IMG/VR virus record: IMGVR_UViG_3300038427_000658
Source: a virus
DNA: 38,109 bases
Strand: one strand, 5' to 3'
This document shows positions 2,305 through 33,070 of this stretch, one piece after another (position 1 is the stretch's first letter; each line of letters begins with the position of its first letter). Both the position numbers and the translations under genes were made by a program. Below the pieces are notes generated by a model. That model ran no database searches. It saw nothing but the letters and a program-made list of their open reading frames with translations, and was not told where the DNA came from.

Positions 2305-2510
2305 GTGAAACTGAATCCTACCGTGAAGACGTTGAAACTTTCTGCAGTAAGCGGCGTTGTCAGGTTTTGATTTTACTACGTACATCCCAGGAGCCTACAG
2401 GTGGCATGATTACGGGTGTGCCTGATTCCTGCAATTTTGAAGGGGATTGTAGCAAGGGTGCATTGTGCCTTTTGAAAGCTAGGCAAATAACTACGGGGAG
2501 GAAACGATGA
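2301..2510 (+). CDS. Small Cys-rich hypothetical protein (contains a repeat-element arm)
   Basis: Overlaps flanking genes at TTGA/ATGA junctions, consistent with translational coupling. Confidence 0.4.
   Translation: MSETESYREDVETFCSKRRCQVLILLRTSQEPTGGMITGVPDSCNFEGDCSKGALCLLKARQITTGRKR
2374..2385 (+). repeat. Left arm of the dispersed quasi-palindromic element
   Basis: Exact TACTACGTACAT. Confidence 0.85.
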
Positions 2511-2674
2511 TGGGTCGTTTTAAGTGTTCTAGTGCTTCTTGCGGTAAAACTTTCCTGGTGCCTGCTAAAATTATTACGGAACGTAAGTCGCTTGATTTTA
2601 CTGCTTCTCGGACTGTGGTTGAGAAGGCTTGTTGTCCGTTTTGTGAAGGCCTTGAGTTTGAGGAGGTTTCTTGA
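2507..2674 (+). CDS. Small Zn-ribbon protein (55 aa)
   Basis: Manual translation MMGRFKCSSASCGKTF...KACCPFCEGLEFEEVS; coupled to neighbouring genes. Confidence 0.65.
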   Translation: MMGRFKCSSASCGKTFLVPAKIITERKSLDFTASRTVVEKACCPFCEGLEFEEVS

Positions 2675-3394
2675 TTGAATAGAACTAAGATTGAGTACCT
2701 TGATTATACTTGGAATCCGATTGTTGGTTGCAGTGGCGTTGGTTGTGCTGTTGCTGGGGTTTGTTGGGCTAAGGGTCAAGGCAAGCGCCAAAAGCCTCGA
2801 GTAGATAGGAACGGGAAGAAGAGAGGCTGCCAGGATTGCTATGATTTTAAGCCTCATTATCATTATGAGCGTTTTAGGCAGCCGTTAGCGGTTAAGAAGC
2901 CTAGTCGCGTTGGTGTTGGCTTCATGGGTGACTTGTTTGATTCTGCCTTCAACATTACCGTTCATCAGCAACTTTTCGGTGTTATGGCTCAGGCTTCCTG
3001 GCATACTTTCCTCGTGTTAACTAAGCAGTCTAAGAACATGCTTACTTTTGTGGATGATTGGATGTCTCCGCCTGCTAACGCTTGGCTGGGTGTCAGTGTT
3101 AACCGCAAGCAGGATCTCTATAGAATTGATAATTTGTTGGCTACTGAGGCGGAAGTAAAGTTTGTTAGTTTTGAGCCGCTTTACGAGGACCTTGGCCCTG
3201 TGGATCTGTCAGGCATTGATTGGGTAATTATTGGAGCTCAGCGTAGGCCTACGATTCAGCCTGAGAAAAACTGGGTTGCTAATTTGATTATGAAGGGCAT
3301 GGATGCTGGCGCCGCGATCTTTCTGAAGAATAACTTGGCTTGCATTAACGAGTTTAGTCGTCGTTTGCAGGAGATCCCGGAGGTAGAGGAGTAA
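2675..3394 (+). CDS. DUF5131 / phage Gp37-Gp68 family radical-SAM-like protein
   Basis: TKIEYLDYTWNPIVGCSGVGC...CWA, FMGDLF, FLVLTK, WLGVSV, FVSFEPL, IDWVIIG motifs. Confidence 0.85.
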   Translation: MNRTKIEYLDYTWNPIVGCSGVGCAVAGVCWAKGQGKRQKPRVDRNGKKRGCQDCYDFKPHYHYERFRQPLAVKKPSRVGVGFMGDLFDSAFNITVHQQLFGVMAQASWHTFLVLTKQSKNMLTFVDDWMSPPANAWLGVSVNRKQDLYRIDNLLATEAEVKFVSFEPLYEDLGPVDLSGIDWVIIGAQRRPTIQPEKNWVANLIMKGMDAGAAIFLKNNLACINEFSRRLQEIPEVEE

Positions 3395-3474
3395 ATGAGC
3401 GGGAAGGTTTGTCGTAAGAAGGCCAGGCGTGAGGGCCGTTTTTGGGTTTGCGATTGCGGTTATAAGGAGATGGC

Positions 3475-3816
3475 TTGAGCATGTGGGTTTGTTTGAATGA
3501 TGAGGGTAAGCGGGTTTGGGGTGATGTCTTTCCAGATGGTAAGGTGCCCGTTTGTTCCATGAATTTCTTCGATGCAAAGCTAGACAATGATCGTTTGGCG
3601 CGGGTCGTTATGGTTAATTTTGCTGCTTTGTCTTCTGCGCAGAAAGATGCTGTCTTGAATAAGTTTGTTGATGTGTGTGGCGTTCCTAAGGGCGCTTTGC
3701 AGAGTCGCCTGCGTTTGAGAAACGAGATTCTAAAGGATATTTTTTCGATTGGCCTTCCGCTGCGGGAATGTTATACGACTGGGGTTGTGGCTGCTGAGTT
3801 GAGGTTCTTCATTTAG
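3475..3816 (+). CDS. Hypothetical protein
   Basis: 113-aa ORF in the operon. Confidence 0.6.
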   Translation: MSMWVCLNDEGKRVWGDVFPDGKVPVCSMNFFDAKLDNDRLARVVMVNFAALSSAQKDAVLNKFVDVCGVPKGALQSRLRLRNEILKDIFSIGLPLRECYTTGVVAAELRFFI

Positions 3817-3828
3817 GAGCTGCATTTT

Positions 3829-4713
3829 TTGTCTGAGTCTGGTCAAAGTACAAAAGTCGCGCCTAAAAAGTACAAAGTACAATTTGACACTGAGAAGGTT
3901 CGCACTTGGGTCCTTCCGCTACTGCGGAGAATTGACGCTGGAGATTATCCTGCTAAGGCTGGGCGCATCATTGGTTTAAGTCGTCAACATGTCGGGTACT
4001 ACATCAGGAAGCTTGAGGAGTGCGGCTTGATCCATCGGGAGAAGCGCAGCAACGTTGTTTTTTATGAGCTTACCAATGCAGGTACAAGTCTTCTCAAGTC
4101 ATGTGAGGGGAGGGTGTTTCCTGGGGAGTTGCATCGTTTGGATAAGTGTCAGGTGTCTTTTGTTGTTGTTCGTGAGGGGTTGTATCCGGATAGGGATTTT
4201 AAGAAAGTGGAGATGGTGAATTGGACTGCTCTTCTTGGCTTGGAGCTTGGTGTTAAGGTTCGTCATACTTCGCGTAGTTGGATTGTGCATGTTCCTGTTA
4301 TTCGGGGTAGGAATCCTGCTGAGGTGTATGGTTTGGCGATGAATTTGGCTAATCGTGTGGCTGCTGCGTTAGGCAAAAAGTATGGGGTTGTTTTGTGTGA
4401 GGGCAAGTTTGTCGGTGGCGAAATGGCTGTTGAGGACCCTGTAGCTAAAATGTTTGGCAGGTATTTTTCTGTGCGGACTAAGCAGCGGAAGATTGATCAT
4501 AGTTTTGGTGAGGGTGAACTTGAGAATTTGGGGAAGGATGCGGTTATTGATTATTTGCAGATGCCTGAGAAAGTTAAGAAAATTGAGAGCAGTGTTGAAC
4601 GTTTGGCGTATAATGTTGTTAAGTTAACTGAAGCGTTGGGCGGGCTTAGCGACCTTGAGGATTCGAAGCGGCTTGCTGAAGGCCAGAGGAAACTTGGAGA
4701 TTACGTTAGATGA
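3829..4713 (+). CDS. N-terminal winged-HTH protein with an uncharacterised C-terminal domain (candidate replication or regulatory protein)
   Basis: AGRIIGLSRQHVGYYIRKLEECGLIHREKRSNVVFYELT is a MarR/ArsR-type wHTH; the C-terminal part has KIDHSFGEGELE and a short coiled coil. Confidence 0.7.
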   Translation: MSESGQSTKVAPKKYKVQFDTEKVRTWVLPLLRRIDAGDYPAKAGRIIGLSRQHVGYYIRKLEECGLIHREKRSNVVFYELTNAGTSLLKSCEGRVFPGELHRLDKCQVSFVVVREGLYPDRDFKKVEMVNWTALLGLELGVKVRHTSRSWIVHVPVIRGRNPAEVYGLAMNLANRVAAALGKKYGVVLCEGKFVGGEMAVEDPVAKMFGRYFSVRTKQRKIDHSFGEGELENLGKDAVIDYLQMPEKVKKIESSVERLAYNVVKLTEALGGLSDLEDSKRLAEGQRKLGDYVR

Positions 4714-4958
4714 AGTTGATTTCTGTGCATCTTCCTGAGACTTACATTCGGTTGCTTGATGAGTTGGTTGCTGAGCGGTTTTATCCTAATCGTGCGGAGG
4801 CTATTCGCATGTTTATTCGGATTGGGCTTTCTGAGCATGACCGGTTCAGGCCTAAGACGGATTATAGGTCTCCAGGTGAAAAGAAGTTAACTGCTGTTGA
4901 GCGGCTTGTTGAGTTGCAGAGCCGGAAGAGTCCGCTTCAGAGAAAGGAGGTTTCTTGA
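4710..4958 (+). CDS. Ribbon-helix-helix (CopG/Arc/MetJ-type) regulator
   Basis: MKLISVHLPETYIRLLDELVAERFYPNRAEAIRMFIR. Confidence 0.85.
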   Translation: MKLISVHLPETYIRLLDELVAERFYPNRAEAIRMFIRIGLSEHDRFRPKTDYRSPGEKKLTAVERLVELQSRKSPLQRKEVS

Positions 4959-4964
4959 TTGATT

Positions 4965-5000
4965 TACTACGTACATTCTAAGGCACATAAGTGCGGGGTA
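4965..5000 (+). repeat. Quasi-palindromic element whose degenerate right arm overlaps the tRNA 5' end
   Basis: Exact left arm at 4965-4976, 12-nt spacer, then AAGTGCGGGGTA (9/12 match to ATGTACGTGGTA). Confidence 0.7.
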
Positions 5001-5070
5001 GCTCAGCCAGGACTAGGGCGCATGGCCCATAACCATGAGATCGAGGGTTCAAATCCTTCCCCCGCAACCA
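4992..5070 (+). tRNA. tRNA with CAT anticodon (Met-type, initiator-like backbone, atypical), with encoded CCA
   Basis: Manual cloverleaf: acceptor TGCGGGG/CCCCGCA, D-stem GCTC/GGGC, anticodon stem CATGG/CCATG with loop CC-CAT-AA, T-arm GAGGG-TTCAAAT-CCTTC, discriminator A, CCA. Confidence 0.9.
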
Positions 5071-5079
5071 AGACCTGTG

Positions 5080-5124
5080 ATGTACGTGGTAGGGTTTTCT
5101 GTGCCCTGTCTGATGTACGTGGTA
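5080..5124 (+). repeat. Two tandem right arms of the dispersed element
   Basis: Exact ATGTACGTGGTA at 5080-5091 and 5113-5124. Confidence 0.85.
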
Positions 5125-5264
5125 TTGTGTTTTTGGATGTGAATGCCTGTTTAAATTTTTTTAGAGGTGTTTTTCGGGGTGTTTTTGCATGGGAAAAGTC
5201 CATGCTTTTGTCTTGGAGGTTTCGATAGTGGTTAGTCCTGATTGCGGGCACTATATTTCTGTTA

Positions 5265-5840
5265 ATGTTGATGGAGTGGATTGCCTTGGCTGAACATGTT
5301 GAGCAAGGTTTAGGCGTTGAGCCTGTTCAAACAGCCGAAAAAGTGGCTGAAAAAGTTAAAAAGAAGCGTAGTCAAAGCGATAAAGTTGGCATAAACAGGT
5401 ATAATCAGCAGTTGCTTAAGCAGGCGTTGGCATGCATTGAGGATATTAAGATGGAGTTACGTTGGGTTCGGCATAAACTTGACAGGTTAGGTGAGGCAGA
5501 TTATTCTCAGTCTGACGTTGAGCATTTTGCGGTTCAAGACGAGGTTGATAAGGAGATTGTTCAGAGGCTTCTTGAGGTAGGCGTGGATGGGGCGTTGCCT
5601 AAGGATGTGGCTGCCGAGGTGAATAAGCGCGGCGGCTACAATTTGAAGTATTATGAGGTAAGTCGCAGGCTGGTCCGGTTGAATAAGCGTTTGCATTTTG
5701 AGACTGGCAAGGTGCTGTTTGAGAAGCGTGGGCACAGGTGGGCTTTGACAAAGTTTGCCTTCGAAGTTTATGGCGAATCTGAAAGCGATATCGCTTCACG
5801 TGCACCTGAATCAGTAGATTCTGAAGAGGAAAAGGCTTAG
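5265..5840 (+). CDS. Hypothetical protein with a coiled coil and a probable C-terminal wHTH
   Basis: 191-aa ORF; C-terminal helix-helix-beta-hairpin pattern (VSRRLVRLNKRL...VLFEKRGHRWALT). Confidence 0.65.
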   Translation: MLMEWIALAEHVEQGLGVEPVQTAEKVAEKVKKKRSQSDKVGINRYNQQLLKQALACIEDIKMELRWVRHKLDRLGEADYSQSDVEHFAVQDEVDKEIVQRLLEVGVDGALPKDVAAEVNKRGGYNLKYYEVSRRLVRLNKRLHFETGKVLFEKRGHRWALTKFAFEVYGESESDIASRAPESVDSEEEKA

Positions 5841-5912
5841 AATTGGCGGTTTTTGGGTTTGGGGCTTGTTTTGGGGCACAGCAACAGTTATAAGCAAATT
5901 GTTGTGATAGGT

Positions 5913-5924
5913 TACTACGTACAT
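5913..5924 (+). repeat. Left arm of the dispersed element (right arm degenerate)
   Basis: Exact TACTACGTACAT followed by spacer-like AGGCAGCCTTGG. Confidence 0.85.
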
Positions 5925-6006
5925 AGGCAGCCTTGGGAAAAGCGGTAAGTCTCTCTCCCAAGGCGGGCTTGCTGTTTTTCTCAGGGTTGTCCTCTATAAT
6001 GTTCTT

Positions 6007-6267
6007 GTGCCGCCGTTTGAGTGGCGTTACGGAAGAGTTTTTATGGTGCATAAACGAAGCAAGGATAAGTTGTTGAAGAGGCAGATTCGCAGGATAATCT
6101 ATGCGTCAAGTTTTGATGATAGGATTATCTGTGAAACTATTAGTCAGGTTTCTCGGGAAGAGGTCCTGCCGCTTTTGGCTCAGCCTGTTCGCCTCAGTGA
6201 TGTGCCTGATGTTGAGAAGGGCGAAGTTTTGGTTAATAGTTATGGCCAGGGGAGTTTTCAGCGGTAA
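6007..6267 (+). CDS. Hypothetical protein
   Basis: 86-aa ORF, start uncertain. Confidence 0.45.
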   Translation: MPPFEWRYGRVFMVHKRSKDKLLKRQIRRIIYASSFDDRIICETISQVSREEVLPLLAQPVRLSDVPDVEKGEVLVNSYGQGSFQR

Positions 6268-6384
6268 AAAGACTGGCTAGCGTTTTGCCGCTATTTTCAG
6301 CCAAAAAGTGAGGTTTTACCATGCTTTTGCCACTTTTTGGAGCAAATTTGTCTCAAAACGCTAGTGGGTTGATGGTGGAAAAAC

Positions 6385-6819
6385 GTGAAAAATATGCAAG
6401 TTACGTTGAGTAAACGGGTTTCTAATAGGATTTGTGCGTCTCGTAGGATTTTGCATGTTGATACTCAGCGGACGCGTAAGAAGTTGATTGAGCAGTTAGA
6501 GGTAGTTTTCTCGACTGCGAGTAATTACGCGCGTGGCAATGTTACTTGGGTAACTGGTGAGGATGGTAAAAGGCGTCCTTTAACGGTTCTTGAGCGTCAG
6601 TGGTGGGCGAAAATCGCAGCGCAGACTGCTCAGACCATAAATAACATTGCTAGGGGTTTTGATGAGCGTCAGATTGATGATCAGCTGAATTTGTTGGAGA
6701 TGATGTTGAATAAAGCTCCGTCAGCGAACCAAGTTCCAGCAGCTTCTGGACCAGAAAAAGCAGAGGGAAAGCCGGCAGGCGCAGGCGTTGGCCAAGGCGC
6801 AGCCGTTGCAGCTTCCTAG
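6385..6819 (+). CDS. Candidate terminase small subunit
   Basis: Helical 144-aa protein immediately upstream of and overlapping TerL; call is by position only. Confidence 0.45.
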   Translation: MKNMQVTLSKRVSNRICASRRILHVDTQRTRKKLIEQLEVVFSTASNYARGNVTWVTGEDGKRRPLTVLERQWWAKIAAQTAQTINNIARGFDERQIDDQLNLLEMMLNKAPSANQVPAASGPEKAEGKPAGAGVGQGAAVAAS

Positions 6820-8146
6820 TGATCCTGTCGAGTTTGCTCAGTCACTTTTCGGTTTTACCGCGAAGAGTTATCAGGTTGAGCTGCTGCGGGATAAGAGTAA
6901 GCGTATTGTGGTTCGTTGGAGTCGGCAGGCTGGGAAGACCACTTGTATTGCTTTGCGGGCGATTTGGTTTGCATGTACGTATCCGAATACTTTGACGTTG
7001 ATTGTTGCTCCTACTTTGCGTCAGAGCATGATCATGAGTGATCGCATCCAGGATTTCTTGGCAAGTGTTCCGAAGGATAAGCGGGATTTGATTGTTGAGA
7101 AGGCGCAGCGCACTACGATTCGCTTTACTAATGGTAGTCGGATTGTGGCTTTGCCTAATAGTCCTCAGCTGCTCCGTGGCTACACTGCTCATCAAGTACT
7201 TCCTGATGAGGCCAACTTTTTCAAGGATGATCAGTTGGTCTTCTATAGTGTTATTTATCCGATGCTGTCGACTACGGATGGTACATTAATCGCGAGTAGT
7301 ACTCCTTGGAATAAAGACAGCGTTTTCTATAAGATGACTCAGGCGCCGGAGTTTAGCAAGCATACTATCACTTGTGAAGATGTTGTTAAGAGTGGGTTGT
7401 GTAAGCAGAGTTTTATTGATGAGATGCGTTCTCAGTTGCCTGCTGAGCGTTTTCAGCGGGAGTTTATGGCTGAATTCGTTGAGGACGTGGACGCTTGGCT
7501 TACTCAGAGCCTTATTGTTAACTGCATCGAAAGTAATTTGCAGCCTCTTGATTTTCAGGCCTTACCTCAGGGCGAGTTTTATGTCGGCGTTGATTTTGGT
7601 AAGGAACAGGATTTCAGTGTGGTCTTAGTGTTTGAGAAGCAAGGGCATGTGTTGCGGGTGATTCATGTTCACCGTTTTCCGCTTAAAACTGAGTATGCTA
7701 GCGTGATCGGGTATATCAAAAGTCTTCAGGACCGTTGGAAAACGGTTCGAGCTGTGTATGCAGATGTTACCGGTGTTGGTAATTATATTGTTGAGGATAT
7801 GGTTCACAGCGGGATCCAGGGCGTGGTGGGCGTAACTTTCACGGTTCAAAGCAAAGAGGAGATGGCTACTATTATGCGGGAGAAGATGCGTGGTGGCGAA
7901 GTGAAGATTCCTTATGTGCCTTCTCGGCGGATTGAGGATGTTGATTTGACGGCTGAATTGAACATTGAAAAGTACGAGCTCATGAAGACAGGGCACTTGC
8001 GCTTTAGCCATCCTGAAGGCGGTCATGATGACGTCTTTTGGAGCATGGCTTTGGCGTGTTATGGTGCTGCGCGGTCTCCGTTGCCTTCCTCAGGCGTTGG
8101 CATCGCAGTGATTAGGAAAAAGGAAAAAATAGTTGATGATGATTAA
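6788..8146 (+). CDS. terL: Terminase large subunit
   Basis: RWSRQAGKTT (Walker A), LRGYT...VLPDEANF (Walker B), ASSTPW, nuclease GVDFG and GHDDVFWSMALA. Confidence 0.95.
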   Translation: MAKAQPLQLPSDPVEFAQSLFGFTAKSYQVELLRDKSKRIVVRWSRQAGKTTCIALRAIWFACTYPNTLTLIVAPTLRQSMIMSDRIQDFLASVPKDKRDLIVEKAQRTTIRFTNGSRIVALPNSPQLLRGYTAHQVLPDEANFFKDDQLVFYSVIYPMLSTTDGTLIASSTPWNKDSVFYKMTQAPEFSKHTITCEDVVKSGLCKQSFIDEMRSQLPAERFQREFMAEFVEDVDAWLTQSLIVNCIESNLQPLDFQALPQGEFYVGVDFGKEQDFSVVLVFEKQGHVLRVIHVHRFPLKTEYASVIGYIKSLQDRWKTVRAVYADVTGVGNYIVEDMVHSGIQGVVGVTFTVQSKEEMATIMREKMRGGEVKIPYVPSRRIEDVDLTAELNIEKYELMKTGHLRFSHPEGGHDDVFWSMALACYGAARSPLPSSGVGIAVIRKKEKIVDDD

Positions 8147-8342
8147 AATGGAAAAAACTTTGTTGTCTGCAAATGCGAAGGACGAGATCGTTAAGGTTCT
8201 CGGGATTGAAGTTGCAAACGTGCGGATGGGTAAGTTGCACGTGAAAATTAACGGTGTTGACTTGATGCAGGACATGGTTTTGGATGACTTGCAGATAACT
8301 GCTGATGTTGAAGAGAAGAAAGAAGAGAAGAAGGAAGCTTAA
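8133..8342 (+). CDS. Small hypothetical protein
   Basis: 69-aa ORF between terL and portal. Confidence 0.55.
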   Translation: MMMIKMEKTLLSANAKDEIVKVLGIEVANVRMGKLHVKINGVDLMQDMVLDDLQITADVEEKKEEKKEA

Positions 8343-8347
8343 CGTAG

Positions 8348-9808: not shown

Positions 9809-10085
9809 CGCGGTTAACGCTGTTATGGCGGTTGAAAGTTTTGAGGCAGCTGTTGTTGACCCTAACATAAAATTTTCTACGTGGCTATTCGTCAATTCAG
9901 GCAACGTTAACACGTGCGAAAAGTGCGATGAGTATAGTGGCGACACGTACGAGTTGGAAGATCCTGATGATTTGTTGGATATTTTTCCGTTCGGCGTTTG
10001 GGTTGATGAAGATACGTTCGCTTGTAACGTGCATCTAAACTGCGTTTGCTATGTGGTCAGGCAATCGGACTACAAAAAAACTTAA
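9774..10085 (+). CDS. MuF-like minor head protein, Cys/His C-terminal domain only
   Basis: TCEKCDEYSG...CNVHLNCVC resembles the MuF C..C...HPNCRC motif; directly follows portal. Confidence 0.6.
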   Translation: MELRILCELCLDAVNAVMAVESFEAAVVDPNIKFSTWLFVNSGNVNTCEKCDEYSGDTYELEDPDDLLDIFPFGVWVDEDTFACNVHLNCVCYVVRQSDYKKT

Positions 10086-10099
10086 GGGAACAAAAAATT

Positions 10100-11206: not shown

Positions 11207-11208
11207 AC

Positions 11209-11664: not shown

Positions 11665-11685
11665 ACACAGGAGGAAACAAAAAAC

Positions 11686-12582: not shown

Positions 12583-12687
12583 AACGCAACAACACAAAAT
12601 TTAATCTATTTTCTTTGCCTCAGTCTTTTAAGTCTGGGGCCGTAAAGCCGGCTTAACCAAAACAAAGCATTATGAGATTTTAAGTTT

Positions 12688-13059: not shown

Positions 13060-13076
13060 TCAAAATTTAAAAGACG

Positions 13077-13841: not shown

Positions 13842-13865
13842 AGAAAAACAACGAGTTGGTTTGAG

Positions 13866-13988: not shown

Positions 13989-13991
13989 GAG

Positions 13992-14696: not shown

Positions 14697-14722
14697 CTTC
14701 CTTAGTTCCTTCTTTTTTTTTC

Positions 14723-14760
14723 TACTACGTACATTCTAGGTCCTTGGCATGTACGTGGTA
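14723..14760 (+). repeat. Complete quasi-palindromic element (14-nt spacer), preceded by a T-tract
   Basis: TACTACGTACAT-TCTAGGTCCTTGGC-ATGTACGTGGTA. Confidence 0.9.
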
Positions 14761-21050: not shown

Positions 21051-21146
21051 TAACTATTATTTTTAAAAAGCTGATCCGTAGTCTCCTTTGAGTCTTTGGA
21101 AAGTAAGACGATACCTGCACGTTTTTTGTGTTGGCAGGGACAAAAA

Positions 21147-21500: not shown

Positions 21501-21506
21501 CCATAA

Positions 21507-21746: not shown

Positions 21747-21820
21747 CTGTTGAAGCCTTCCCGGCGTAAGATTTTGAGGCTTGTGTTTCAGGTTCATTCA
21801 GTCAATTTCCTTTAGCGGTA

Positions 21821-22378: not shown

Positions 22379-22380
22379 AA

Positions 22381-24579
22381 ATGGTTGATTTTGAAGTTTA
22401 TACGGGTCAATGGTCAACGATAAATGACGTGACTGAAGGAACTGTTGATGCGTCAGGTACGGCGCGTGTTGTAACAGGTTCAGAGAGCGATCATAACTAC
22501 GTTTTCTTTGCTACTGTTATTCCTGTTTCTGCCGTAAAAGTCGGTTTAATCGTTAACCACACGTTAGACGAAAACTATAATGAAAGCTACCTTGTTTTCA
22601 TGCTGCATCTTGACACGTCGCCTACAACTGTGACGCTTGAGGCTGTGACACGTGACTCATACGGAAATGAGACTTCCCGCCAAACCCTTGCATCCAGAAA
22701 CATATCATTAACCGCAAATACCCCGTATGTTGCTCGCGTCGAGACGGAAACATTAAGCGATGGTAACTTTGCAGTTTACTGCTTCATCGATGATTTCATG
22801 TTGGTAGAAGCGGAAGATTTGCTGGCGCAGTATAGTGCGGGGCAGAAAGGGTTTGAGATTCTCGGAAACAACGGTGATTCCGCGCAATTCCTCATTTTGA
22901 CTTCAGTGACTGCAGCAAATTTGACTGTGCCAGAGGGCGGCGGTAGCGTTGGATTGCCTGTTTGCATAGTTAGTTTAGGGTTGTCAGTTGCGGTTCCGCA
23001 AGAAGATGTTGTTTCTTTGAAGTTGCATCTTGGCTGCACGAAAGAGGTTAGCAGTTTTGATCTTTTGCTGCAGAATTGGGATAGAAAATATAGTTTAAAT
23101 GGCGCTTATCCGATTCTTGTTGGGTTGACGGGTGGCATCGGCCTTTGCAGGGCGCCGAATGATCCTGCTACTGTGCCGGTGATTTCGCTTCGGGTTGAAG
23201 GTGTTGAGTATCAGGAGAACCCTAATGCGCCTGGTGTGTCTGGCGAGTTTTATGTGCACGTGACTGGGCGTTGCTGGGGTGAACAGCTTTTCCGCAAGTT
23301 AGCAACTATAGAATACTTGAATCAAAAGGGCGAAGCGATAGTAAAAGATTTAATTGATAATTTCACAAGCTTAAGCCACACGCGCAATAGTGTGGAACTT
23401 GTTGAGGATACAAGTACTACGTACATTGACTTGAAGTATTCTAACAAGCAAGTTTTTGACATTTTAAAGGATATTGCTGATAGCTCTGACCAAAGCGGTG
23501 TTATTGGCTTTGATTTTCGTGTGGCGCCTGATGGCAAGTTTGAGTTTTTCCTAAAAAACAGTAAAAGTAACAGTGTGGATTTGAGTGAGAGCATAGAGCA
23601 GAGTAATTATAGCAAAGACATTTCCAGGGTTAGAAACAAAATTACTGTGTACGGCGCAGCTACCAAAAGTACGCCTTTGGATAAGGATGCTTGGACTGAA
23701 ATACTAAGCCCACCAGCAGGTAATTGGACAGCTTTCGGCGACGGCGTTACTGTCGCGCAGGATAGCACTGTTAAAGCCATTGGAACAAGCAGTATTAAAT
23801 GCCACATTGTCAATAATGCTTACGGCGCCATTATTTTCACTTTTAATGCAGGGTATGAAGTAAACGCTAATCTATATCCTAAATTAGCGTTATTTACCTT
23901 AATACCGACATTTAGTCGTGAAGGAGCCATTACGTTATTTGATATCAACGGTAAGCAAATGACTCAAGACCAAGCTTTTACTGGAAAAACGGCGTGGGGC
24001 AGTAAATCGGTTGATGTTGGAGAAGCAAACGCTGCTAACTGGGTGCCTGGGATCGAGCAATCAGGGTTTGATTGGACGCAGATAAAGAAAGTTGAAATAT
24101 CGTGCTTAGTTAATGAAGGAATGACTTCGGGCTCCGGCGACTACTGGATTGACGGCTTATACTTTGGCGGAATGAAATATAGTGCCGTTGAGGAAGATAA
24201 TGCAAGTCAAGTAGCCTATGCTTTAAGGGAATATGTTGAAACGGAGGCTTCTTTAGCCAGCGATAACGAATGCGACTTACGCGCTAAAGCGCTTCTTGCT
24301 TATTATAAGGATCCTGCGATTTCTTTGACTATTATCAGTACTGTTATTGATTATGGTACTACGCCCATTTTAGGAGGCGATAAAGTTCATGTTACTTTGC
24401 CTAACGAGAATGTGGATGATGATTTTCGCGTTGACTACGTTGAGTACCAGGTTGATACGAAGTCTGAGCCTCAGATGCTTAAGATAACGGTTAATTTGGG
24501 TAAGGAGAAGCCGCAGCTTGCTGATTACCTTTGTGGGCTTACATCTGTGAAAGGAGCGTTCAGCCTTGCGTCAGTTTAA
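22381..24579 (+). CDS. Tail tip/hub protein with accessory N-terminal and internal beta-sandwich domains
   Basis: Hub-like segments (GRCWGEQLF, GFDFRVAPDGKFEFF, RVRNKITVYG, LGGDKVHV...RVDYVEY); ~730 aa; position after the tape measure. Confidence 0.75.
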   Translation: MVDFEVYTGQWSTINDVTEGTVDASGTARVVTGSESDHNYVFFATVIPVSAVKVGLIVNHTLDENYNESYLVFMLHLDTSPTTVTLEAVTRDSYGNETSRQTLASRNISLTANTPYVARVETETLSDGNFAVYCFIDDFMLVEAEDLLAQYSAGQKGFEILGNNGDSAQFLILTSVTAANLTVPEGGGSVGLPVCIVSLGLSVAVPQEDVVSLKLHLGCTKEVSSFDLLLQNWDRKYSLNGAYPILVGLTGGIGLCRAPNDPATVPVISLRVEGVEYQENPNAPGVSGEFYVHVTGRCWGEQLFRKLATIEYLNQKGEAIVKDLIDNFTSLSHTRNSVELVEDTSTTYIDLKYSNKQVFDILKDIADSSDQSGVIGFDFRVAPDGKFEFFLKNSKSNSVDLSESIEQSNYSKDISRVRNKITVYGAATKSTPLDKDAWTEILSPPAGNWTAFGDGVTVAQDSTVKAIGTSSIKCHIVNNAYGAIIFTFNAGYEVNANLYPKLALFTLIPTFSREGAITLFDINGKQMTQDQAFTGKTAWGSKSVDVGEANAANWVPGIEQSGFDWTQIKKVEISCLVNEGMTSGSGDYWIDGLYFGGMKYSAVEEDNASQVAYALREYVETEASLASDNECDLRAKALLAYYKDPAISLTIISTVIDYGTTPILGGDKVHVTLPNENVDDDFRVDYVEYQVDTKSEPQMLKITVNLGKEKPQLADYLCGLTSVKGAFSLASV

Positions 24580-24587
24580 GCCTTAGG

Positions 24588-24599
24588 ATGTACGTGGTA
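24588..24599 (+). repeat. Right arm of the dispersed element
   Basis: Exact ATGTACGTGGTA preceded by spacer-like TTAAGCCTTAGG. Confidence 0.85.
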
Positions 24600-24691
24600 A
24601 CCCGTTTTCTGGTCTAGTTTCAAATTCGAGTTTTTGTGGAGTATGCGATTTTCGAGTTTTCATGTTAACCTTTGTGAGAGGTGAAAAATCA

Positions 24692-26455: not shown

Positions 26456-26493
26456 GGAACTAACAAAACCAAACAACTTTCCCTTTTTCTTTA

Positions 26494-27477
26494 CTAATCT
26501 GGTTTACCTGTTAATTGTTTTTGTAATGCGTAGTAGGCCGGTCGTGGCGTCGTCGCGTTTCCGATTAGTCCGAAGCTTTTTTGGTCTGCAGCGTTATCTA
26601 TTAGCGAGTACCAGAATAAGTGTGTGACTTTTCCTTGGAAAAATCCGAGAGCATCAGTCATGTACTGCGCCTGTCCTTGTTCTCCGCTGGCTTCTATTGG
26701 TTGACCAGTTTCAGTTACCCATATTTCAAGAGTTTTGTTTGACGTGAAAAGTGCGCGGTAATATGCTAGTGATTGAGTGTAGCTATTCCAAACTAAGGGT
26801 TGAACTTGGTTCATCCAGGGATAGGCGTGGATTGAGATTGCGTCACCGTACTGTTCAATGTTCATGGCTGCGAGTTGCCGTGCAAACTCTTTATCAAGTG
26901 CAAGATTAGGGTCGCTTCCTGAATACAGGTTTAAGCCTCCGAAGAGTACGATTTTTGCGGTTGGGTCGTATTGGCGGATGATTGGTGAAGCTGTCTGCAC
27001 AATCGAGTAATAAAATTCAACGATTCGGCTCATGTTTTCCTGGGCCGTAATATTCAAGTTCAACAGTGGGTAGGTTGGGTTTGCGGGTTCATTCCAGATT
27101 TCCCAAGCATCTACATTCGAATAATTTGAAACGTAATGTGTAACGGCATTGCGCCATTCTTCAAGTGTGAATGTTGTTGTTTGGTTGAACATCCAACTGT
27201 CAAGGATTCCGAGAACCTTCAAGTTATATGCCTTCGCATTTGTGACTGCTGTGCCAAAATCGGGTGAAGCGTCTATGCGTATCCAACGTGCACCGCTCTC
27301 GTTAACCAGTTGTGCTTCATTGGCAGAAAGAGAATGCAAACTGATTCCTACCCAATCATTCTCAGTTTGGTTGGAAGACGGGTTTGATGCAGGCGGTATC
27401 TTACTTGCAATGAAGTAGGCTGCAATAATGAGGGCTATGGCTAAGATAGCGTATATTGTTAGTTGTTTTTTCTTCAT
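26494..27477 (-). CDS. Membrane-anchored glycoside hydrolase (GH5/GH39-like, clan A)
   Basis: N-terminal TM anchor (MKKKQLTIYAILAIALIIAAYFIA), ARWIRID, AWEIWNEPAN, AISIHAY, EIWVTETG, FWYSLID. Confidence 0.85.
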   Translation of the reverse strand: MKKKQLTIYAILAIALIIAAYFIASKIPPASNPSSNQTENDWVGISLHSLSANEAQLVNESGARWIRIDASPDFGTAVTNAKAYNLKVLGILDSWMFNQTTTFTLEEWRNAVTHYVSNYSNVDAWEIWNEPANPTYPLLNLNITAQENMSRIVEFYYSIVQTASPIIRQYDPTAKIVLFGGLNLYSGSDPNLALDKEFARQLAAMNIEQYGDAISIHAYPWMNQVQPLVWNSYTQSLAYYRALFTSNKTLEIWVTETGQPIEASGEQGQAQYMTDALGFFQGKVTHLFWYSLIDNAADQKSFGLIGNATTPRPAYYALQKQLTGKPD

Positions 27478-27733
27478 GTTATCCCCAATTTCTTGTGTGG
27501 CATTTTGGGCAACGAAGAGGCATTGAACGCCCATCTTTAGCCCAACGTTTTGGTCGTGATTTCCATTCGTAACCGCAATGTGAACATTTGAATCTTGGTC
27601 TTTTGTATCTCCTTGGCTTCGGTAATAACTCCATTTAAACCAGCATGTTAGTGATTGGTAATAACTACGTATAAAGTTATCTTCGTAACCTTTTGGGCGT
27701 TTCATGGTAATTGTAATTGAACGGTGAAAAGAT

Positions 27734-28147
27734 TTGGAAAACAAAGAAAAAGAGAAGGATTTGAAGAAGCAGTTTGAATCGCTTTGCATAGGTGACTTGA
27801 TCTGTGTGGAATGGTGTGATGCTAGCGTTGGCAAGAGCAGAAGCAGTGGTATGCTGATTGATGTGCCTGTGAAGAGTTGGGGTGTTTATGTGGGTTTATT
27901 AGGCAGCAAAGCTAAGCACATCGTCCTTGCGCAGAATAGTTTCTGTTACGCCGACGGCATCTTTGATTTGGATTATACGGCTATTCCTCTTAGCTGGACT
28001 GTGGACGTGTCGGTGCTGGTTAAGGCGTATATTCCTAAAGAAGTAGCGGGTAAGCTTGTTAACAGTTTCTTGTCAGGTGGGCATCGGGTGTTTAATCATT
28101 CGCAGACGTTTCAGCGGAGGCTGAGTACGGATGGTAGACCGGATTAA
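27734..28147 (+). CDS. Conserved-looking hypothetical phage protein
   Basis: GDLICVEWCDAS...GVYVG...IVLAQN...IP pattern. Confidence 0.65.
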   Translation: MENKEKEKDLKKQFESLCIGDLICVEWCDASVGKSRSSGMLIDVPVKSWGVYVGLLGSKAKHIVLAQNSFCYADGIFDLDYTAIPLSWTVDVSVLVKAYIPKEVAGKLVNSFLSGGHRVFNHSQTFQRRLSTDGRPD

Positions 28148-28376
28148 GCGTGCTTTGACTCGTCGGCGCCGGGTTCCTGGGCGTCCTGTTATAGTTGAGG
28201 AGCCGAATGAAACGCTTGTTTATTGCGTAAAATTTATCATGGTCATGATTGTTTGCTTGTCAGCTCTCGAGGTTGCGTGTATGGCTTTTCTGGGAAGCTG
28301 GAGTAGCGAAGTGTTTAGCGCTATTATGGGGTTAGTCGGGATAGTTACTGGGATTTTTGTTGGGCAGAAAACGTAG
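28131..28376 (+). CDS. Small two-TM membrane protein
   Basis: Basic N-terminus followed by two hydrophobic helices. Confidence 0.65.
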   Translation: MVDRIKRALTRRRRVPGRPVIVEEPNETLVYCVKFIMVMIVCLSALEVACMAFLGSWSSEVFSAIMGLVGIVTGIFVGQKT

Positions 28377-28446
28377 GGCTAAACTTCAAAAAATTCGCAG
28401 GAAGCTTAAGGAGCGCCAGGTCACGGGCGTAACCAGATAAGCGGTT

Positions 28447-28481
28447 TACTACGTACATTGTAGCTTTGAATGTATGTGGTA
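28447..28481 (+). repeat. Complete quasi-palindromic element (11-nt spacer)
   Basis: TACTACGTACAT-TGTAGCTTTGA-ATGTATGTGGTA. Confidence 0.9.
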
Positions 28482-28510
28482 GCGTCTGTTTTTGTGCATT
28501 TAAATCGTTA

Positions 28511-28905
28511 TCAGCGGAGGCTATCACTTTCACTGTACTCTCCACTAGGCTGATTAGTCGTTTGGGCGGTGGTTGCTTATATTTCCTCTAAATTAATGCG
28601 CCACTTGAGGGGCGGAGTTTATGAGAGATCGGAGAGATGTGTTTAGGATTCGCAAGTGCCGCCGTATATACGATCGTGTACACGGCAGGTTTAGTTTTTG
28701 TGCATTGTTAATTGGTGTCAGCGGAGGCTATCACTTTCACTGTACTCTCCACTAGGCTGATTAGTCGTTTGGGCGGTGGTTGCTTATATTTCCTCTAAAT
28801 TAATGCGCCACTTGAGGGGCGGAGTTTATGAGAGATCGGAGAGATGTGTTTAGGATTCGCAAGTGCCGCCGTATATACGATCGTGTACACGGCAGGTTTA
28901 GTTTT
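28511..28905 (+). repeat. 188-bp direct repeat (28511-28698 and 28718-28905)
   Basis: The two copies appear identical by eye, with a period of 207 bp; each contains the upstream region and first codons of the ATPase gene. Confidence 0.9.
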
Positions 28906-30276
28906 CATGTTGAGTATGAGACTCACGCGGAGTTGACGCCTAGGACTGTGGTTGTTGCTGAAGCTTTTGGCCTTGGGATTGATGAGGCTCAGAAGTTCCC
29001 GGTGCTTAATGCGGAGCTGCAGATTAGCCCTAAAGATATCGTGCTGATTACCGGTGATAGTGGCAGCGGCAAGAGTGTTTTGCTTCGTGCTATCCGTGAG
29101 GACCTAGGCGCTGAAGCAGTCGACATGGCAGATATCCACATGGATGAGAGTAAGCCGTTAATTGAGACTGTTGGCGCCACTGTTGAGGAGGCCTTGGAGC
29201 TGCTTAGCAAGGTTGGGTTGAATGATGCTTTTTTGTTTCTGCGTAAGTATGGTCAGCTTTCGGATGGCCAGAAGTACCGTTACCGCATAGCCAAGCTAAT
29301 TGAAAGTAAAGCGCAGTGGTGGCTTATGGACGAATTCTGTGCAACGTTGGACCGTGACACTGCTAAAATTATCGCTTTTAATGTGCAAAAGTTGGCTCGG
29401 CAGCAGGGCAAGGCGGTTCTCGCTGCGACTACGCATGACGATTTGTTTGAGGATCTCTCGCCTAGTGTGCACGTGCACAAGCGTTTTGGCGAAGAAATCG
29501 ACATCAAATATTATTCGAGTAGGCCTGCTGCAGAGTGTAGTTTGCTTGGGGAGATGATGGTTGAGGGTGGCACTTTGGATGATTGGCGTAAACTAAGTGT
29601 CTTCCATTATCGCAGTCATAATGTTAGTGCCCCAAGAGGTATCTTCAGTGTTCGGCGCAACGCTGAGCTTTGCGGAGTGATTGTGTATTGTTATCCGCCT
29701 CCGAACTGTGCTGGCCGCAGGCTTGTGCTACCGAGGATGTCAATTCAGGATTTGAACAAGCAGCTGAGCATTATTAGCCGGGTTGTGGTTCATCCCAAGT
29801 ACCGTACCATCGGGTTAGGTGAGAAGTTGATTCGTGAGACTTTACCGCTTGTTGGGACGCCTTATGTGGAGATGATTGCGGTTATGGCTAAGTATAATCC
29901 GTTTGCTGAGCGTGCTGGCATGCGAAAGGTGAGCGTTCATGAGCCTCCGAAAGAAGCGCTTGGGTTAGCTGAGGCCCTGAAGGGCTTTGGCTTTGATGTG
30001 CAATTGCTTGGCAGCCAGCGGTATGTACGTGGTAAGCTTGAAGGCCTAAGCAGTGAGCAGGTTGCAGAGTTGAAAGAGGCGTTTGTGCGGAATGGTCATC
30101 AGCGTTTCAGGAAAGAGTTTGCAGCTATGCGTCATGTGCCTTATGGCACCACAAAACTGTACCGGGCAGGAATTGAAAGCGCTGATTTGGATAAGTTGGC
30201 GAAGCTGATCAGGATTGTTGGGGTTCTCCTGCAGACAAAGGTTTACCTATTCTGGGAGAATCCTAGCTTAGCATAG
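28828..30276 (+). CDS. ABC-type ATPase fused to a GNAT-like acetyltransferase (COG2401-like)
   Basis: Walker A GDSGSGKS, signature LSDGQKYR, Walker B LMDEF, H-loop ATTHDD; GNAT motif A SRVVVHPKYRTIGLG. Confidence 0.9.
   Translation: MRDRRDVFRIRKCRRIYDRVHGRFSFHVEYETHAELTPRTVVVAEAFGLGIDEAQKFPVLNAELQISPKDIVLITGDSGSGKSVLLRAIREDLGAEAVDMADIHMDESKPLIETVGATVEEALELLSKVGLNDAFLFLRKYGQLSDGQKYRYRIAKLIESKAQWWLMDEFCATLDRDTAKIIAFNVQKLARQQGKAVLAATTHDDLFEDLSPSVHVHKRFGEEIDIKYYSSRPAAECSLLGEMMVEGGTLDDWRKLSVFHYRSHNVSAPRGIFSVRRNAELCGVIVYCYPPPNCAGRRLVLPRMSIQDLNKQLSIISRVVVHPKYRTIGLGEKLIRETLPLVGTPYVEMIAVMAKYNPFAERAGMRKVSVHEPPKEALGLAEALKGFGFDVQLLGSQRYVRGKLEGLSSEQVAELKEAFVRNGHQRFRKEFAAMRHVPYGTTKLYRAGIESADLDKLAKLIRIVGVLLQTKVYLFWENPSLA
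30023..30034 (+). repeat. Isolated right arm of the dispersed element, inside coding sequence
   Basis: Exact ATGTACGTGGTA. Confidence 0.6.
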
Positions 30277-31450
30277 TTTCTAGTAATCTTAGGTTTTCGT
30301 TTGGTTGTCCGTTGTCAAAGAAATACCAGTAGGGTTCAAATTCTATTATTTCTGCGCCTAAACTTTTTGCTGAAAGTGCGTGTTGTATTAATAATGAGAT
30401 GGGCATGTTCATGGGGTCGGTGCCGTAACGTGTTGTCCAATACCAGGCTTGGACTGATGCGCCCCAGTGTTGGAACATACTGCTTACTTGCATGAAGCCA
30501 GTTGCGGGTTCGAGATCTCCCGAATTTGTGGAGAAGGAAACGGTCACGATGTCCTCGTAACCCTTGATGTAAGTTTGTATTGGCTTGAATGTTTCTGCTT
30601 TCCACTCTGTCCAGAACAGCTTTAGGTTGTTTGCTCTGCAGAATTGAAGGATGGATGTGATATAGGCTGTTGGAAAGGGCAGTTCGGGATGCGCCATGTA
30701 CCAACTTACGAGTTCGGCAAACCGTAAATACTGGACGTTGCACGTTGCCATAGCTGCTAAAATGTCATCGGGCGATAGCATTTGAATGGGAGCGGAACCG
30801 TTTCCTCCTTCGAAGACGTCTAGCATGATTGGGATGCCGTGTTGTCCTCCGAAGTTGGTTGTAAGCCATGCAAGCTCTTCTGTCCAGTTTGTGTTTCCTT
30901 CGTATTCGGGTAGCAGGAGGATGTTGTATGTGTTGTTGTTGAGGGCTAGGATTTGGTTGTAGGTGTCGCTTGCATTAGGTAGGTGTCCCCATATATACCC
31001 TGGTCCTTTTTCGGAGACGTGGAAGACCAGGGTTTGTAATTGTGTTTTGTTCGTGTTAATTATTGCTGTGAGATTGTTTATTTGGCTCTGCAGAGTGGTC
31101 ACAGTGGAACTTAAGGAGCTGATCTGGGAATTTGCTGTTGTGATTTGGCTTTGAAGGGTTGTTATTTGAGAATTTAGGGAATTGACTTGGCTTGTGAGAT
31201 TTGTTATTTGGGAGTCCTGATTTGTTGTTCGGGTGTTTAGTGAGGTGATTGTGTTGTTGTTTTCTGTTATTTGGGCGTCTTGGATGGCGAGTTGTGAGTT
31301 TTGGTTGTTGATTGTTGAGTCCTGGCTTGTTATGGTGTTGTCTTTTGCGCTTATTATTGACGTGTAGTTGGCTATGACTCCGGCTAAACTGGCTGCTAGA
31401 AGGATGCAGATGATCGCTAAGGTAATAGTTAGCTTATTGGTGTTATTCAT
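30263..31450 (-). CDS. Membrane-anchored surface protein: TM helix, coiled-coil stalk and putative GH-like domain
   Basis: MNNTNKLTITLAIICILLAASLAG anchor, heptad Q/N/S/T stalk, C-terminal domain paralogous to 16252-17601. Confidence 0.8.
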   Translation of the reverse strand: MNNTNKLTITLAIICILLAASLAGVIANYTSIISAKDNTITSQDSTINNQNSQLAIQDAQITENNNTITSLNTRTTNQDSQITNLTSQVNSLNSQITTLQSQITTANSQISSLSSTVTTLQSQINNLTAIINTNKTQLQTLVFHVSEKGPGYIWGHLPNASDTYNQILALNNNTYNILLLPEYEGNTNWTEELAWLTTNFGGQHGIPIMLDVFEGGNGSAPIQMLSPDDILAAMATCNVQYLRFAELVSWYMAHPELPFPTAYITSILQFCRANNLKLFWTEWKAETFKPIQTYIKGYEDIVTVSFSTNSGDLEPATGFMQVSSMFQHWGASVQAWYWTTRYGTDPMNMPISLLIQHALSAKSLGAEIIEFEPYWYFFDNGQPNENLRLLETMLS

Positions 31451-31772
31451 GTGAATCGCCTGTTTTGGAGTCGCCAAACTGGCTCTTTATGATTTTTCTG
31501 TTGCCTTCTTTCGGCTTGCCTATTTTCTGGGAGCATTTATCACAACAAAGTAGAATTTTCTGTCTGACTGTTAAGGTGTTGCCGTTCATTTCTGTCTGCA
31601 TGGGGTATTGATTGATTACTAGTTTATCAGCGGTTTTTGTTTTGTGGCAGACTGGGCAGGTGAAGGGTATTTTTGCAAGTTCTTCTCTGGTCTTAGGTAA
31701 TTCGCTTGTTACTTTGATACCAAGTACATCTATTATGGCTTTGTTTTTTTGTTCGGCTAAATCTTTACTCGT
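31443..31772 (-). pseudogene. Frameshifted Zn-finger protein gene
   Basis: GAGGTG SD-like site followed by ACG (not ATG); ...FTCPVCHK...INNTP then a one-base shift into MQTEMNG...LLCCDKCSQK. Confidence 0.45.
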
Positions 31773-32102
31773 TTATATCACCTCTAAATTTGCTTTTTCT
31801 GTTTTGTGGAATTCGTAGGCGTTGACGGTTTGCCATGGTATAAAGTAGCCTTGATTTTTAGTCATCCATTCTAGGAATTCTGTTAGGTTGTTGAATCCTT
31901 CAGCTTTCGCTTCTTCTTCGGTTACGTTGAATAAGCGTTGTGGGAACGCATTTAGTATTTGGATGTAGGCTTGTGATTTTTGGTAGCGTCGGCGGCTGGC
32001 GCCGTAGATTCTTCCAACCTTATAGGTTTGTTTGCTTAGGCGTCTAGTTTGAGTTTTGGTTCCATCCATGACTTTCGCTAGTAGAGGGTCCTTGAAAAGC
32101 AT
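31773..32102 (-). CDS. ASCH domain protein
   Basis: GTKTQTRR, KVG, L..VTEEEAKAEGF motifs. Confidence 0.85.
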   Translation of the reverse strand: MLFKDPLLAKVMDGTKTQTRRLSKQTYKVGRIYGASRRRYQKSQAYIQILNAFPQRLFNVTEEEAKAEGFNNLTEFLEWMTKNQGYFIPWQTVNAYEFHKTEKANLEVI

Positions 32103-32111
32103 ATTTATCGC

Positions 32112-32282
32112 CTATGGTCCTGCTTTTTTGAGGAATTGCTCGATTAGTCGTAGGTCTTCGTTGACGGGTTGCATGTGTCGGCAGCGGCTTACTAGCATTG
32201 CGTAGCCTTCGAGTTTTTCTCCGGTTGCTAGGAATTTTGTGATTATTTCTTTTTCTTTTTCTGTTAGTATGTATTCTCTCAT
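32112..32282 (-). CDS. Small hypothetical protein (56 aa)
   Basis: Manual translation MREYILTEKEKEIITKFLATGEKLEGYAMLVSRCRH... Confidence 0.6.
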   Translation of the reverse strand: MREYILTEKEKEIITKFLATGEKLEGYAMLVSRCRHMQPVNEDLRLIEQFLKKAGP

Positions 32283-32507
32283 TGTTATCGTTCCTGAATG
32301 GGATTGTTTTTATGCGTATTTAAGGTTAACTGTGACGCTTTAACTATGATAGATATGTTTATATGCCTAATTAACTACTACAGTTATTAAGGCGATAAGT
32401 AAAATGATTAACCAGAAAACGATTGATGAGTTTTCGCTTGAATCCAAGCCTTTAGATCGGGCGGAGAAAACTATCGCTAGTTTAAAGAATGTAAAGGAGT
32501 TGAATTT

Positions 32508-32876
32508 ATGGTGATGGCTCCTGAATCTTCTCATCTTTCTATGCTTTTGGATCGCGTGAGAGGCGAAGAGGTTAGCCTTGGTTATGCTCGCAAGGAATCG
32601 CTCATCGACATAGCGGAACACATGCTTAGTTGGAATGATTCTGCGAAAGAGGAAGAGCGTGAAGCTATAGCTTTGCTAGCGAAATATCATCTTGCAACCC
32701 TGGCTAATAAGCATCCGAAGTTTATCAAGAAGAGTTGGGTTTTAATTCGGCAAGAGCTTGCGAAGCCTTATGAAGCCCGGTGTTGCCGCTGTGGCGCCGT
32801 TATTACTGCTAAGAAATCGCTTGAAACGGGGCTAGGAAGCGTTTGCAGAAAAAAGGTAATTTCTGGCCTGAAGTGA
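32508..32876 (+). CDS. Protein with a C-terminal DUF6011-like Zn finger
   Basis: RCCRCGAVIT..KSLETGLGSVCRKK. Confidence 0.7.
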   Translation: MVMAPESSHLSMLLDRVRGEEVSLGYARKESLIDIAEHMLSWNDSAKEEEREAIALLAKYHLATLANKHPKFIKKSWVLIRQELAKPYEARCCRCGAVITAKKSLETGLGSVCRKKVISGLK

Positions 32877-33031
32877 GAGTGGCAATTTGGGCGAAGGCTG
32901 AGGAGCTTTTTATGCAGGAGCAGATGCGAACTATGGATTGTGATGTTAGGCCTGAGCGAAGTGAGCTTCTGGAAGGCGGGTTTTTTGAGCGGGCTAAAAT
33001 AATTGTTCTCCGGGAGCGGTTGGGGGTTTGA
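32873..33031 (+). CDS. Small hypothetical protein
   Basis: GTG overlapping the previous stop codon. Confidence 0.5.
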   Translation: MRVAIWAKAEELFMQEQMRTMDCDVRPERSELLEGGFFERAKIIVLRERLGV

Positions 33032-33034
33032 GGT

Positions 33035-33070
33035 TACCACGTGCATGTTAGGGTTTGAATGTACGTAGTA
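33035..33070 (-). repeat. Complete quasi-palindromic element in reverse orientation (12-nt spacer)
   Basis: The minus strand reads TACTACGTACAT-TCAAACCCTAAC-ATGCACGTGGTA, 5 nt after the stop of the minus-strand RHH gene. Confidence 0.9.

Follow-up and report, generated by a model that had tools for sequence, protein, structure and literature searches.

Several families of short DNA words that recur throughout a genome have been described. The 12-nt DNA uptake sequence (DUS) of Neisseria and the uptake signal sequence (USS) of Pasteurellaceae are clade-specific, are the most over-represented words of their genomes at about one copy per kb, lie in genes as single copies of either orientation and close to gene ends as inverted pairs, are retained between orthologues and gained from near-matches, and are depleted in proviruses. 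The chromosomal sites parS, the Noc-binding site (NBS), the SlmA site and matS are present in tens of near-exact copies of 12-16 bp, indifferent to gene and orientation and conserved between species, and the temperate prophage N15 carries dispersed inverted copies of its centromere repeats. The cyanobacterial word HIP1 (GCGATCGC) is over-represented in coding and non-coding DNA alike and is retained between orthologues. Here we describe a 12-nt word, W (TACYACGTACAT; left arm form TACTACGTACAT, right arm form ATGTACGTGGTA), which recurs in a provirus within a 38,109-nt stretch of viral DNA (IMG/VR record IMGVR_UViG_3300038427_000658; this whole stretch is hereafter the window) and in a clade of Bathyarchaeia. 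W shares with DUS and USS all the features named above except two: it is 20-100 times rarer, and it is enriched rather than depleted in proviruses. It resembles the parS group and the N15 repeats in the number, exactness and dispersal of its copies, although near the origin it is enriched no more than some three-fold, and it resembles HIP1 in distribution, retention and a function that is likewise not known; HIP1, however, is an 8-bp perfect palindrome present about once per kb, and a concentration in viruses is not known for it. Our main finding is that W is a clade-specific DNA word under constraint at the level of the DNA itself, which occurs in a single and an inverted-pair form and which the viruses of the clade have gained convergently.

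When the window was searched for W at up to one mismatch, each search gave 12-15 matches; dinucleotide shuffles led one to expect 0.12-0.15, and none of them attained the observed count. In all, the window has 16 arms. A sequence-only reading of the window had listed exact left arms at 2374, 4965, 5913, 14723, 28447 and, on the minus strand, 33059-33070, exact right arms at 5080, 5113, 14749, 24588 and 30023, and one-mismatch right arms at 28470 and 33035, and we recovered every one of them; an exact left arm at 23415 had been overlooked, and a one-mismatch arm at 31718 is also new. The elements spread across 31 kb as three full hairpins, one compound element (left arm, tRNA-Met, right arm, conserved 21-nt spacer, second right arm), single arms in spacers and single arms within open reading frames (ORFs); their coordinates are collected in Table 1. 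Six of nine sites lie 5-75 nt past a stop codon and along the direction of transcription, as had been noted. It is also true that none lies in the host flank, but since that flank is only 1.4 kb long its lack of W is uninformative.

The exact full element was found at 14 loci of Bathyarchaeia metagenome-assembled genomes (MAGs) and in 6 IMG/VR contigs. One of these MAGs, G001, is the complete chromosome (2.35 Mb) of a related host. It matches the host flank of the window (85-1423) at 80-93% identity, and the commonest 12-mer of this chromosome is TACTACGTACAT with 40 copies, to which the C variant adds 22. W, the top 12-mer, recurs on either strand, within genes as well as between them; outside mobile elements its density is 0.04 per kb as against the one per kb or so of DUS and USS. 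There are 62 exact and 50 one-mismatch copies in G001, whereas the reversed word, used as a control, gives 0 and 13; at two mismatches W is not in excess. The 10-nt core of W has 90 copies against 4. The CpG-containing hexamers within it are themselves depleted, the reversed forms of ACGTAC and TACGTA being about twice as frequent. Among 201 Bathyarchaeia genomes sampled, no more than 5 are W-rich, with 62, 16, 16, 11 and 9 copies, and the others have 0-2, like the control. This corresponds to one copy per 21-38 kb in G001 and, in the four other W-rich genomes (9-16 copies per 1.6-2.0 Mb), to one per 100-200 kb. Relatedness was gauged by a NurA-like gene. The nearest relatives beyond these five (G087, G119 and G176; 63-71% identity of the NurA-like protein) have none of the three W sites looked for in that gene and at most one W genome-wide. 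No paper found in a literature search mentions the motif, and Rfam, run on the window at gathering thresholds and on eight compound-copy loci in E-value mode, matched only the tRNA.

The constraint is best seen by comparing orthologous loci. When the W loci were ascertained in one W-rich genome, G143, and then sought in other genomes, 9 of 14 were exact in G033, with flanks about 80% identical (chance per locus 0.08, p=2e-7), and the figure for G115, at 71% identity, was 3 of 14 (p=0.004). Four genomes spell the HerA peptide LLRTL as TTA CTA CGT ACA TTA, which yields W; G001 spells it CTT TTG AGA ACG CTT. In all five W-rich genomes, the NurA-like gene beside oriC has two inverted copies of W separated by 4 nt, and a third copy follows 165 nt downstream. 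The corresponding peptide is YYEHKDTRSNY in W-poor relatives and YHVHGDVRSMY in W-rich genomes, and therefore W arose here by amino-acid changes; in G143 the gene copy has suffered a frameshift and in-frame stops, and the W pair is still present. Conversely, W sites found in G001 only (PriS, NAD kinase, HypF) are 2-5 changes away from their orthologues, and in PriS, the sole case where the codons were read, the changes that create W are synonymous. The conserved loci and the sites private to G001, taken together, indicate that W is both retained and newly created.

In the same chromosome the two forms of W are distributed differently. Thirteen of 15 multi-arm clusters lie outside long ORFs, in convergent, tandem and also divergent spacers, and nested forms (LLR, LRR, LlRR) are found among them, while ORFs contain 21 of the 28 exact single arms, a share that simply tracks the coding fraction of 84%. 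The products of the ORFs with single arms have Pfam support and include NrdD (anaerobic ribonucleotide reductase), HypF, the primase PriS, MetRS and HerA; NAD kinase, FTR, HemD and others also carry single arms. Single arms are not biased to the sense strand (17 sense, 12 antisense), and arms are evenly divided between leading and lagging strands relative to the cdc6-linked origin (35 and 34), which is unlike what would be expected of an RNA element or of a polar signal of the Chi or KOPS (FtsK-orienting polar sequence) type; a Chi/KOPS-like polarity was accordingly rejected.

Turning to viruses, we compared 38 IMG/VR relatives of the window provirus (489 kb in total), 34 with terminases 66-83% identical and four with terminases 28-36% identical to that of the window; exact W is absent from all of them, and no other recurrent hairpin word was seen in these relatives save a few candidates. 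A more distant virus of the W clade (L015, L017, L018; terminase 41% identical) is W-rich, at other spacers. Arms per kb amount to 0.44 in the window provirus, 0.34 in a related provirus of G001 (563.8-598.7 kb) and 0.24 in a second G001 element, as compared with 0.125 in the 60 kb on each side of oriC and 0.040 in the remaining chromosome, so that viruses of the clade carry W at about ten times the host density. The W-free close relatives, the W-rich distant virus and these densities together indicate that W content tracks the host and not the virus family. The sequence-only reading had put the element forward as a candidate undescribed system, with binding sites for a virus-encoded regulator as one option. 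A system owned by the virus and read by its winged helix-turn-helix (wHTH), ribbon-helix-helix (RHH) or Myb-like protein or by its integrase must be given up, as W is clade-wide in the host, is the top 12-mer of G001, stands in housekeeping genes under DNA-level constraint and is absent from the 38 close viral relatives. Of the alternative which that reading had set against itself, a known host-wide palindromic repeat, the host-wide part largely applies, but the element is not a known one.

Two observations on W-less relatives may be added. Three of them (L211, L216, L219) have another hairpin, small and conserved, CATGG-TAAAAGT-CCATG, where the window has its compound W element, in the spacer between the homologues of window 3829-4713 and 5265-5840. 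Another (L196) has four copies, in both orientations, of a 13-15-nt word, (ga)TACTGTTAAGTTA, at 1665, 2232, 6498 and 8903, which perhaps belongs to another host clade as W does to this one.

What reads W can only be proposed. We suggest, tentatively and at a little short of an even chance, that W is read by a putative host factor which the viruses recruit or titrate. The host clade would then encode a sequence-specific factor that recognizes W as DNA. In coding sequence the choice of codons, and at times a change of amino acid, would produce single copies in either orientation; intergenic W would stand as close inverted pairs, hairpin-capable like repetitive extragenic palindromes (REPs) and often beside oligo-T runs. 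Viruses would acquire W after reaching the clade, by substitutions in genes and as 35-40-nt hairpin units in spacers, and its roughly ten-fold density there would presumably help them to attract or sequester that factor. Incidentally, the palindromes would be broken and rejoined, so that modules change there and a tRNA gene or further hairpins come to lie in the loops. If W is indeed a recognition word, then an undescribed sequence-reading system must exist in a widespread, uncultured group of archaea from soil and peat, where it could serve segregation, DNA import or end-processing; archaeal viruses would fit themselves to a host by taking over its DNA word, and viruses in metagenomes could be linked to hosts by sequence only.

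Several points weigh against this reading. No reader protein emerged from the comparisons: the wHTH gene that neighbours the W cluster of highest density, that of the NurA-like gene, was considered as a clade-specific reader and rejected, as it occurs in W-poor relatives too. Most sites of the parS, NBS and matS type are palindromic and have a known reader, whereas W is asymmetric and its reader is not known. The conservation and gain of W could come from molecular drive instead of function site by site. In the virus, the strand asymmetry of the arms and the greater stability of the sense strand in two of three hairpins, both described below, may point to a role for RNA or for a single-stranded form. 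The T-runs, too, are only weakly above background in G001, lying near 13 of 27 clusters as compared with 31% at random (p=0.048). Lastly, the statements on the host are drawn from G001, a relative that stands in for the window's own host.

Alternatively, the inverted pairs could act in cis as RNA or single-strand hairpins, as terminator helpers or protectors of 3' ends, with a U.G wobble marking the functional strand. Such hairpins would suit the six sites past stop codons and the run of five or more T within 20 nt at 4 of 6 window sites. The T-run is 3' of the arms at 5124 and 28481 and 5' of the hairpins at 14723 and 33070. They would suit equally the T/G asymmetry, which the sequence-only reading had regarded as conserved: on the sense strand of the window, T stands in 7 of 7 left arms and G in 7 of 7 right arms, and two hairpins are predicted to fold more stably as sense than as antisense RNA (-17.0 and -13.8 against -9.9 and -4.1 kcal/mol). 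Strand composition was rejected as the sole cause of this 14-of-14 rule; four-fold sites have T/(T+C) of 0.73 and G/(G+A) of 0.56, which accounts for part of it and leaves p ~0.002, and the remainder could come from the copying of one founder hairpin. In host hairpins each arm takes its Y state independently of the other (TT 9, CC 1, mixed 8), so that the wobble is not general, and the Y state of a host arm is unconnected to local skew. Against an RNA role, single arms of the window that have no partner follow the T/G rule too, and the third hairpin is stabler as antisense (sense -8.3, antisense -10.1 kcal/mol). The hairpin of the NurA-like gene has C.A on its sense strand, host hairpins also lie in divergent promoter spacers, some 21 exact single arms stand conserved within host genes in both orientations, and the close viral relatives do without any such hairpin. 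The stem, which pairs fully save for one wobble, is so nearly invariant in sequence that it offers no compensatory changes. An RNA hairpin as the function of W thus seems unlikely.

W could also be a word of the uptake type, or of the Chi type, read by a translocating machine such as HerA-NurA for import or for end-resection; it would spread by drive or by selection for self DNA, and viruses would mimic it to enter the cell or to evade degradation. The pattern is that of DUS and USS, in that a clade-specific top word is single in genes and forms inverted intergenic pairs beside T-runs, W has been gained from near-matches through few substitutions, it is conserved in both NurA-HerA operons, and it is enriched in viruses. 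The low density of W, equally far below that of Chi, counts against this, as do the lack of strand polarity relative to the origin and the HerA matches to CedD, which fall far below the cut-off, and we know of no competence machinery or uptake bias in these archaea. We therefore rate an uptake- or Chi-type word as rather improbable. About as doubtful is the bolder proposal that W is the first archaeal "self-DNA word", read by a DNA-translocating machine and copied by viruses, which would thereby be taken for self or treated in the manner of host DNA. The candidate machine would be the HerA-NurA modules, whose own genes hold the best-conserved W sites and one of which lies beside oriC; this lead, that both host NurA-HerA modules bear conserved W, was noticed post hoc.

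The two operons are at 2168978-2171513 (L173:8978-11513) and 721374-723910 (L101:1374-3910) of G001. One of them is about 1.3 kb from the cdc6-linked oriC and has five arms in G001. The probable replication origin (2167.7-2168.4 kb; L173:7660-8450) lies beside orc1/cdc6 and the PolD small subunit and has repeats of the origin recognition box (ORB) type, GCACCCC..TTCTACTGGAAAA, in direct and inverted copies; identity of W with these ORB repeats was considered and rejected, as their sequence is not W. PADLOC and NCBIfam searches of the two modules gave only generic similarity to HerA, far below cut-offs.

A selfish, functionless palindrome comparable to REPs or to miniature inverted-repeat transposable elements (MITEs), tolerated in spacers and concentrated in mobile elements as havens or vehicles, would account for the whole units (arms plus the loop type TCTAGGNCCTTGG) found at non-orthologous spacers of two viruses and the host, for the nested copies, for the ~180-nt compound copy with inverted ends and for the enrichment of W in mobile elements. 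Indeed, intergenic W is similar to the REPs and bacterial interspersed mosaic elements (BIMEs) of enterobacteria and pseudomonads, which have REP-associated tyrosine transposases (RAYTs): its copies are 35-40-nt imperfect palindromes, sometimes nested or clustered, situated at operon ends and targets for the insertion of other DNA. The REP-like hairpin that the sequence-only reading had proposed fits the intergenic copies. W recurs as a short imperfect palindrome in extragenic DNA, but it is not confined to such DNA, its half-sites in genes are under constraint, and its GTRG motif lies within the stem and not 5' of it. A REP system with RAYT was rejected: the Y1 transposase was not found in G001, where, as in G115 and G122, PF01797 matches nothing while control genomes give matches. 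Moreover, the single arms of essential genes, conserved far above chance, were made by codon and amino-acid changes, and insertion cannot produce such arms. As a full account of W, a selfish repeat is accordingly quite unlikely.

The palindromes do seem to be places where viral DNA is broken and rejoined, as the breaks, a half-element and the insertions in loops suggest. Homology with the related G001 provirus breaks at or beside the elements at 5080, 14735, 24663 and 28443, as the sequence-only reading had suggested one should look for. At 14735 it ends inside the loop, and G001 retains the left arm alone; at 24588, where the G001 provirus carries a complete hairpin, the window is without the left arm; 63 nt downstream of the 24588 arm the window has an inserted gene of 1.8 kb that G001 lacks, with the break at 24663; and homology ends again at 28443. 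By our own estimate the overlap of breaks and elements reaches only p=0.04 or so when both are confined to spacers. L016:786-855, when compared with window 4959-5124, has the same hairpin and downstream sequence with a tRNA-free loop of 13 nt, and therefore the tRNA-Met of the window sits within the loop. In the G001 provirus a tRNA-like T-arm fragment is found at the same spot; a split or permuted tRNA in this loop insert was considered and rejected, ARAGORN calling none. In another pair of orthologous hairpins, G001 1197814 (L033:1001-1037) and the peat MAG locus L012:1093-1131, the loop is inverted, which is a spacer flip between inverted arms. Small palindromes of this kind mark points of module exchange and of the pick-up of cargo such as a tRNA gene.

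The sequence-only reading had offered, as one option, recombination sites for module shuffling by a tyrosine recombinase, and although the homology breaks, the tRNA gene and further hairpins inserted in loops and two MAG contigs with a hairpin 12 nt upstream of an integrase homologue agree with module recombination, we consider tyrosine-recombinase sites of the attC or dif kind very unlikely, because spacers of 4, 8, 11-15 and about 100 nt are incompatible with a fixed crossover region, integrases have no fixed link to the element (elements stay at least 3.7 kb away from that of the window, at 36781, and that of the G001 provirus has no arm within 3 kb, on which account adjacency to an integrase was rejected as a general rule) and the arms in housekeeping genes would be unexplained. 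Integron attC sites do share with W an imperfect palindrome with a strand-specific mismatch, a variable centre and a position beside variable genes, but attC conserves structure and not sequence, whereas the arm sequence of W is invariant. Identity with attC was rejected, TACYACGTACAT having neither the R''-L''...L'-R' boxes nor the GTTRRRY core and there being no cassette array and no integron integrase; identity with a CRISPR repeat was rejected as well, the copies being dispersed and inverted without an array. The two MAG contigs, both from Bathyarchaeota, have the hairpin at L003:1113-1150 and L010:1450-1487, and their integrase homologues are 38-42% identical to the Zn-ribbon tyrosine integrase of the window.

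Table 1. W arms and associated features of the window (positions in nt from the first letter of the window)
Feature	Position	Strand	Remarks
Single left arm TACTACGTACAT	2374..2385	+	Within ORF 2301-2510
Left arm of compound element	4965..4976	+	7 nt past stop of RHH gene 4710-4958
tRNA-Met (CAT) in hairpin loop	4992..5070	+	Loop of 13 nt, free of tRNA, in the same hairpin of related contig L016
Right arm ATGTACGTGGTA	5080..5091	+	Partner of left arm 4965
Conserved 21-nt spacer gRgttttctgtgccctgtctg	5092..5112	+	Between two right arms
Second right arm, outer	5113..5124	+	Left partner missing here; followed by T5 run
Single intergenic left arm	5913..5924	+	Conserved in G001 provirus (596479); followed by unrelated hairpin
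Full hairpin, 14-nt loop	14723..14760	+	Immediately past T9 run
Single left arm	23415..23426	+	Within 749-aa ORF; 6 of 12 nt differ from G001 provirus, three non-synonymous
Single right arm	24588..24599	+	9 nt past stop of 749-aa ORF; intergenic
Full hairpin, 11-nt loop, right arm ATGTATGTGGTA	28447..28481	+	Followed by T5; common to L020
Single right arm	30023..30034	+	Within ABC-ATPase/GNAT ORF 28828-30276
One-mismatch arm TACCAAGTACAT	31718..31729	+	Between minus-strand genes; possibly a decayed copy
Full hairpin	33035..33070	-	5 nt past stop of RHH gene 33075-33551; T5 before hairpin on minus strand

The 21-nt spacer of the compound element recurs in L016, in L001, at 598.4 kb and 1716 kb of G001 and in the compound copies of the host. 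Among the latter, a unit of about 180 nt is present in three copies in G001 (52.8 kb, 361.4 kb and 1474.7 kb; L021, L024, L039) and contains nested W hairpins and the conserved 21-nt spacer. Its ends, CTGTCAAGTTGACGGTT ... AACCGAAAGTTTACAG, are approximate inverts of each other, and in appearance it resembles a MITE or the gene of a small RNA. Immediately after the single arm at 5913 lies a separate hairpin (5930-5973) with a 9-bp stem (GCCTTGGGA...TCCCAAGGC), and arm and hairpin together are nearly identical in the G001 provirus. A second repeat family of G001, ATTGTTTGAACAAAACTTTTACG, with about 20 copies, is also among its top 12-mers and is possibly a CRISPR repeat. Finally, a fragment at 309643-309969 of G001 matches the C-terminal third of the window integrase and lies about 4.5 kb from the point that is syntenic with the integration site of the window, which suggests a reused integration hot spot.

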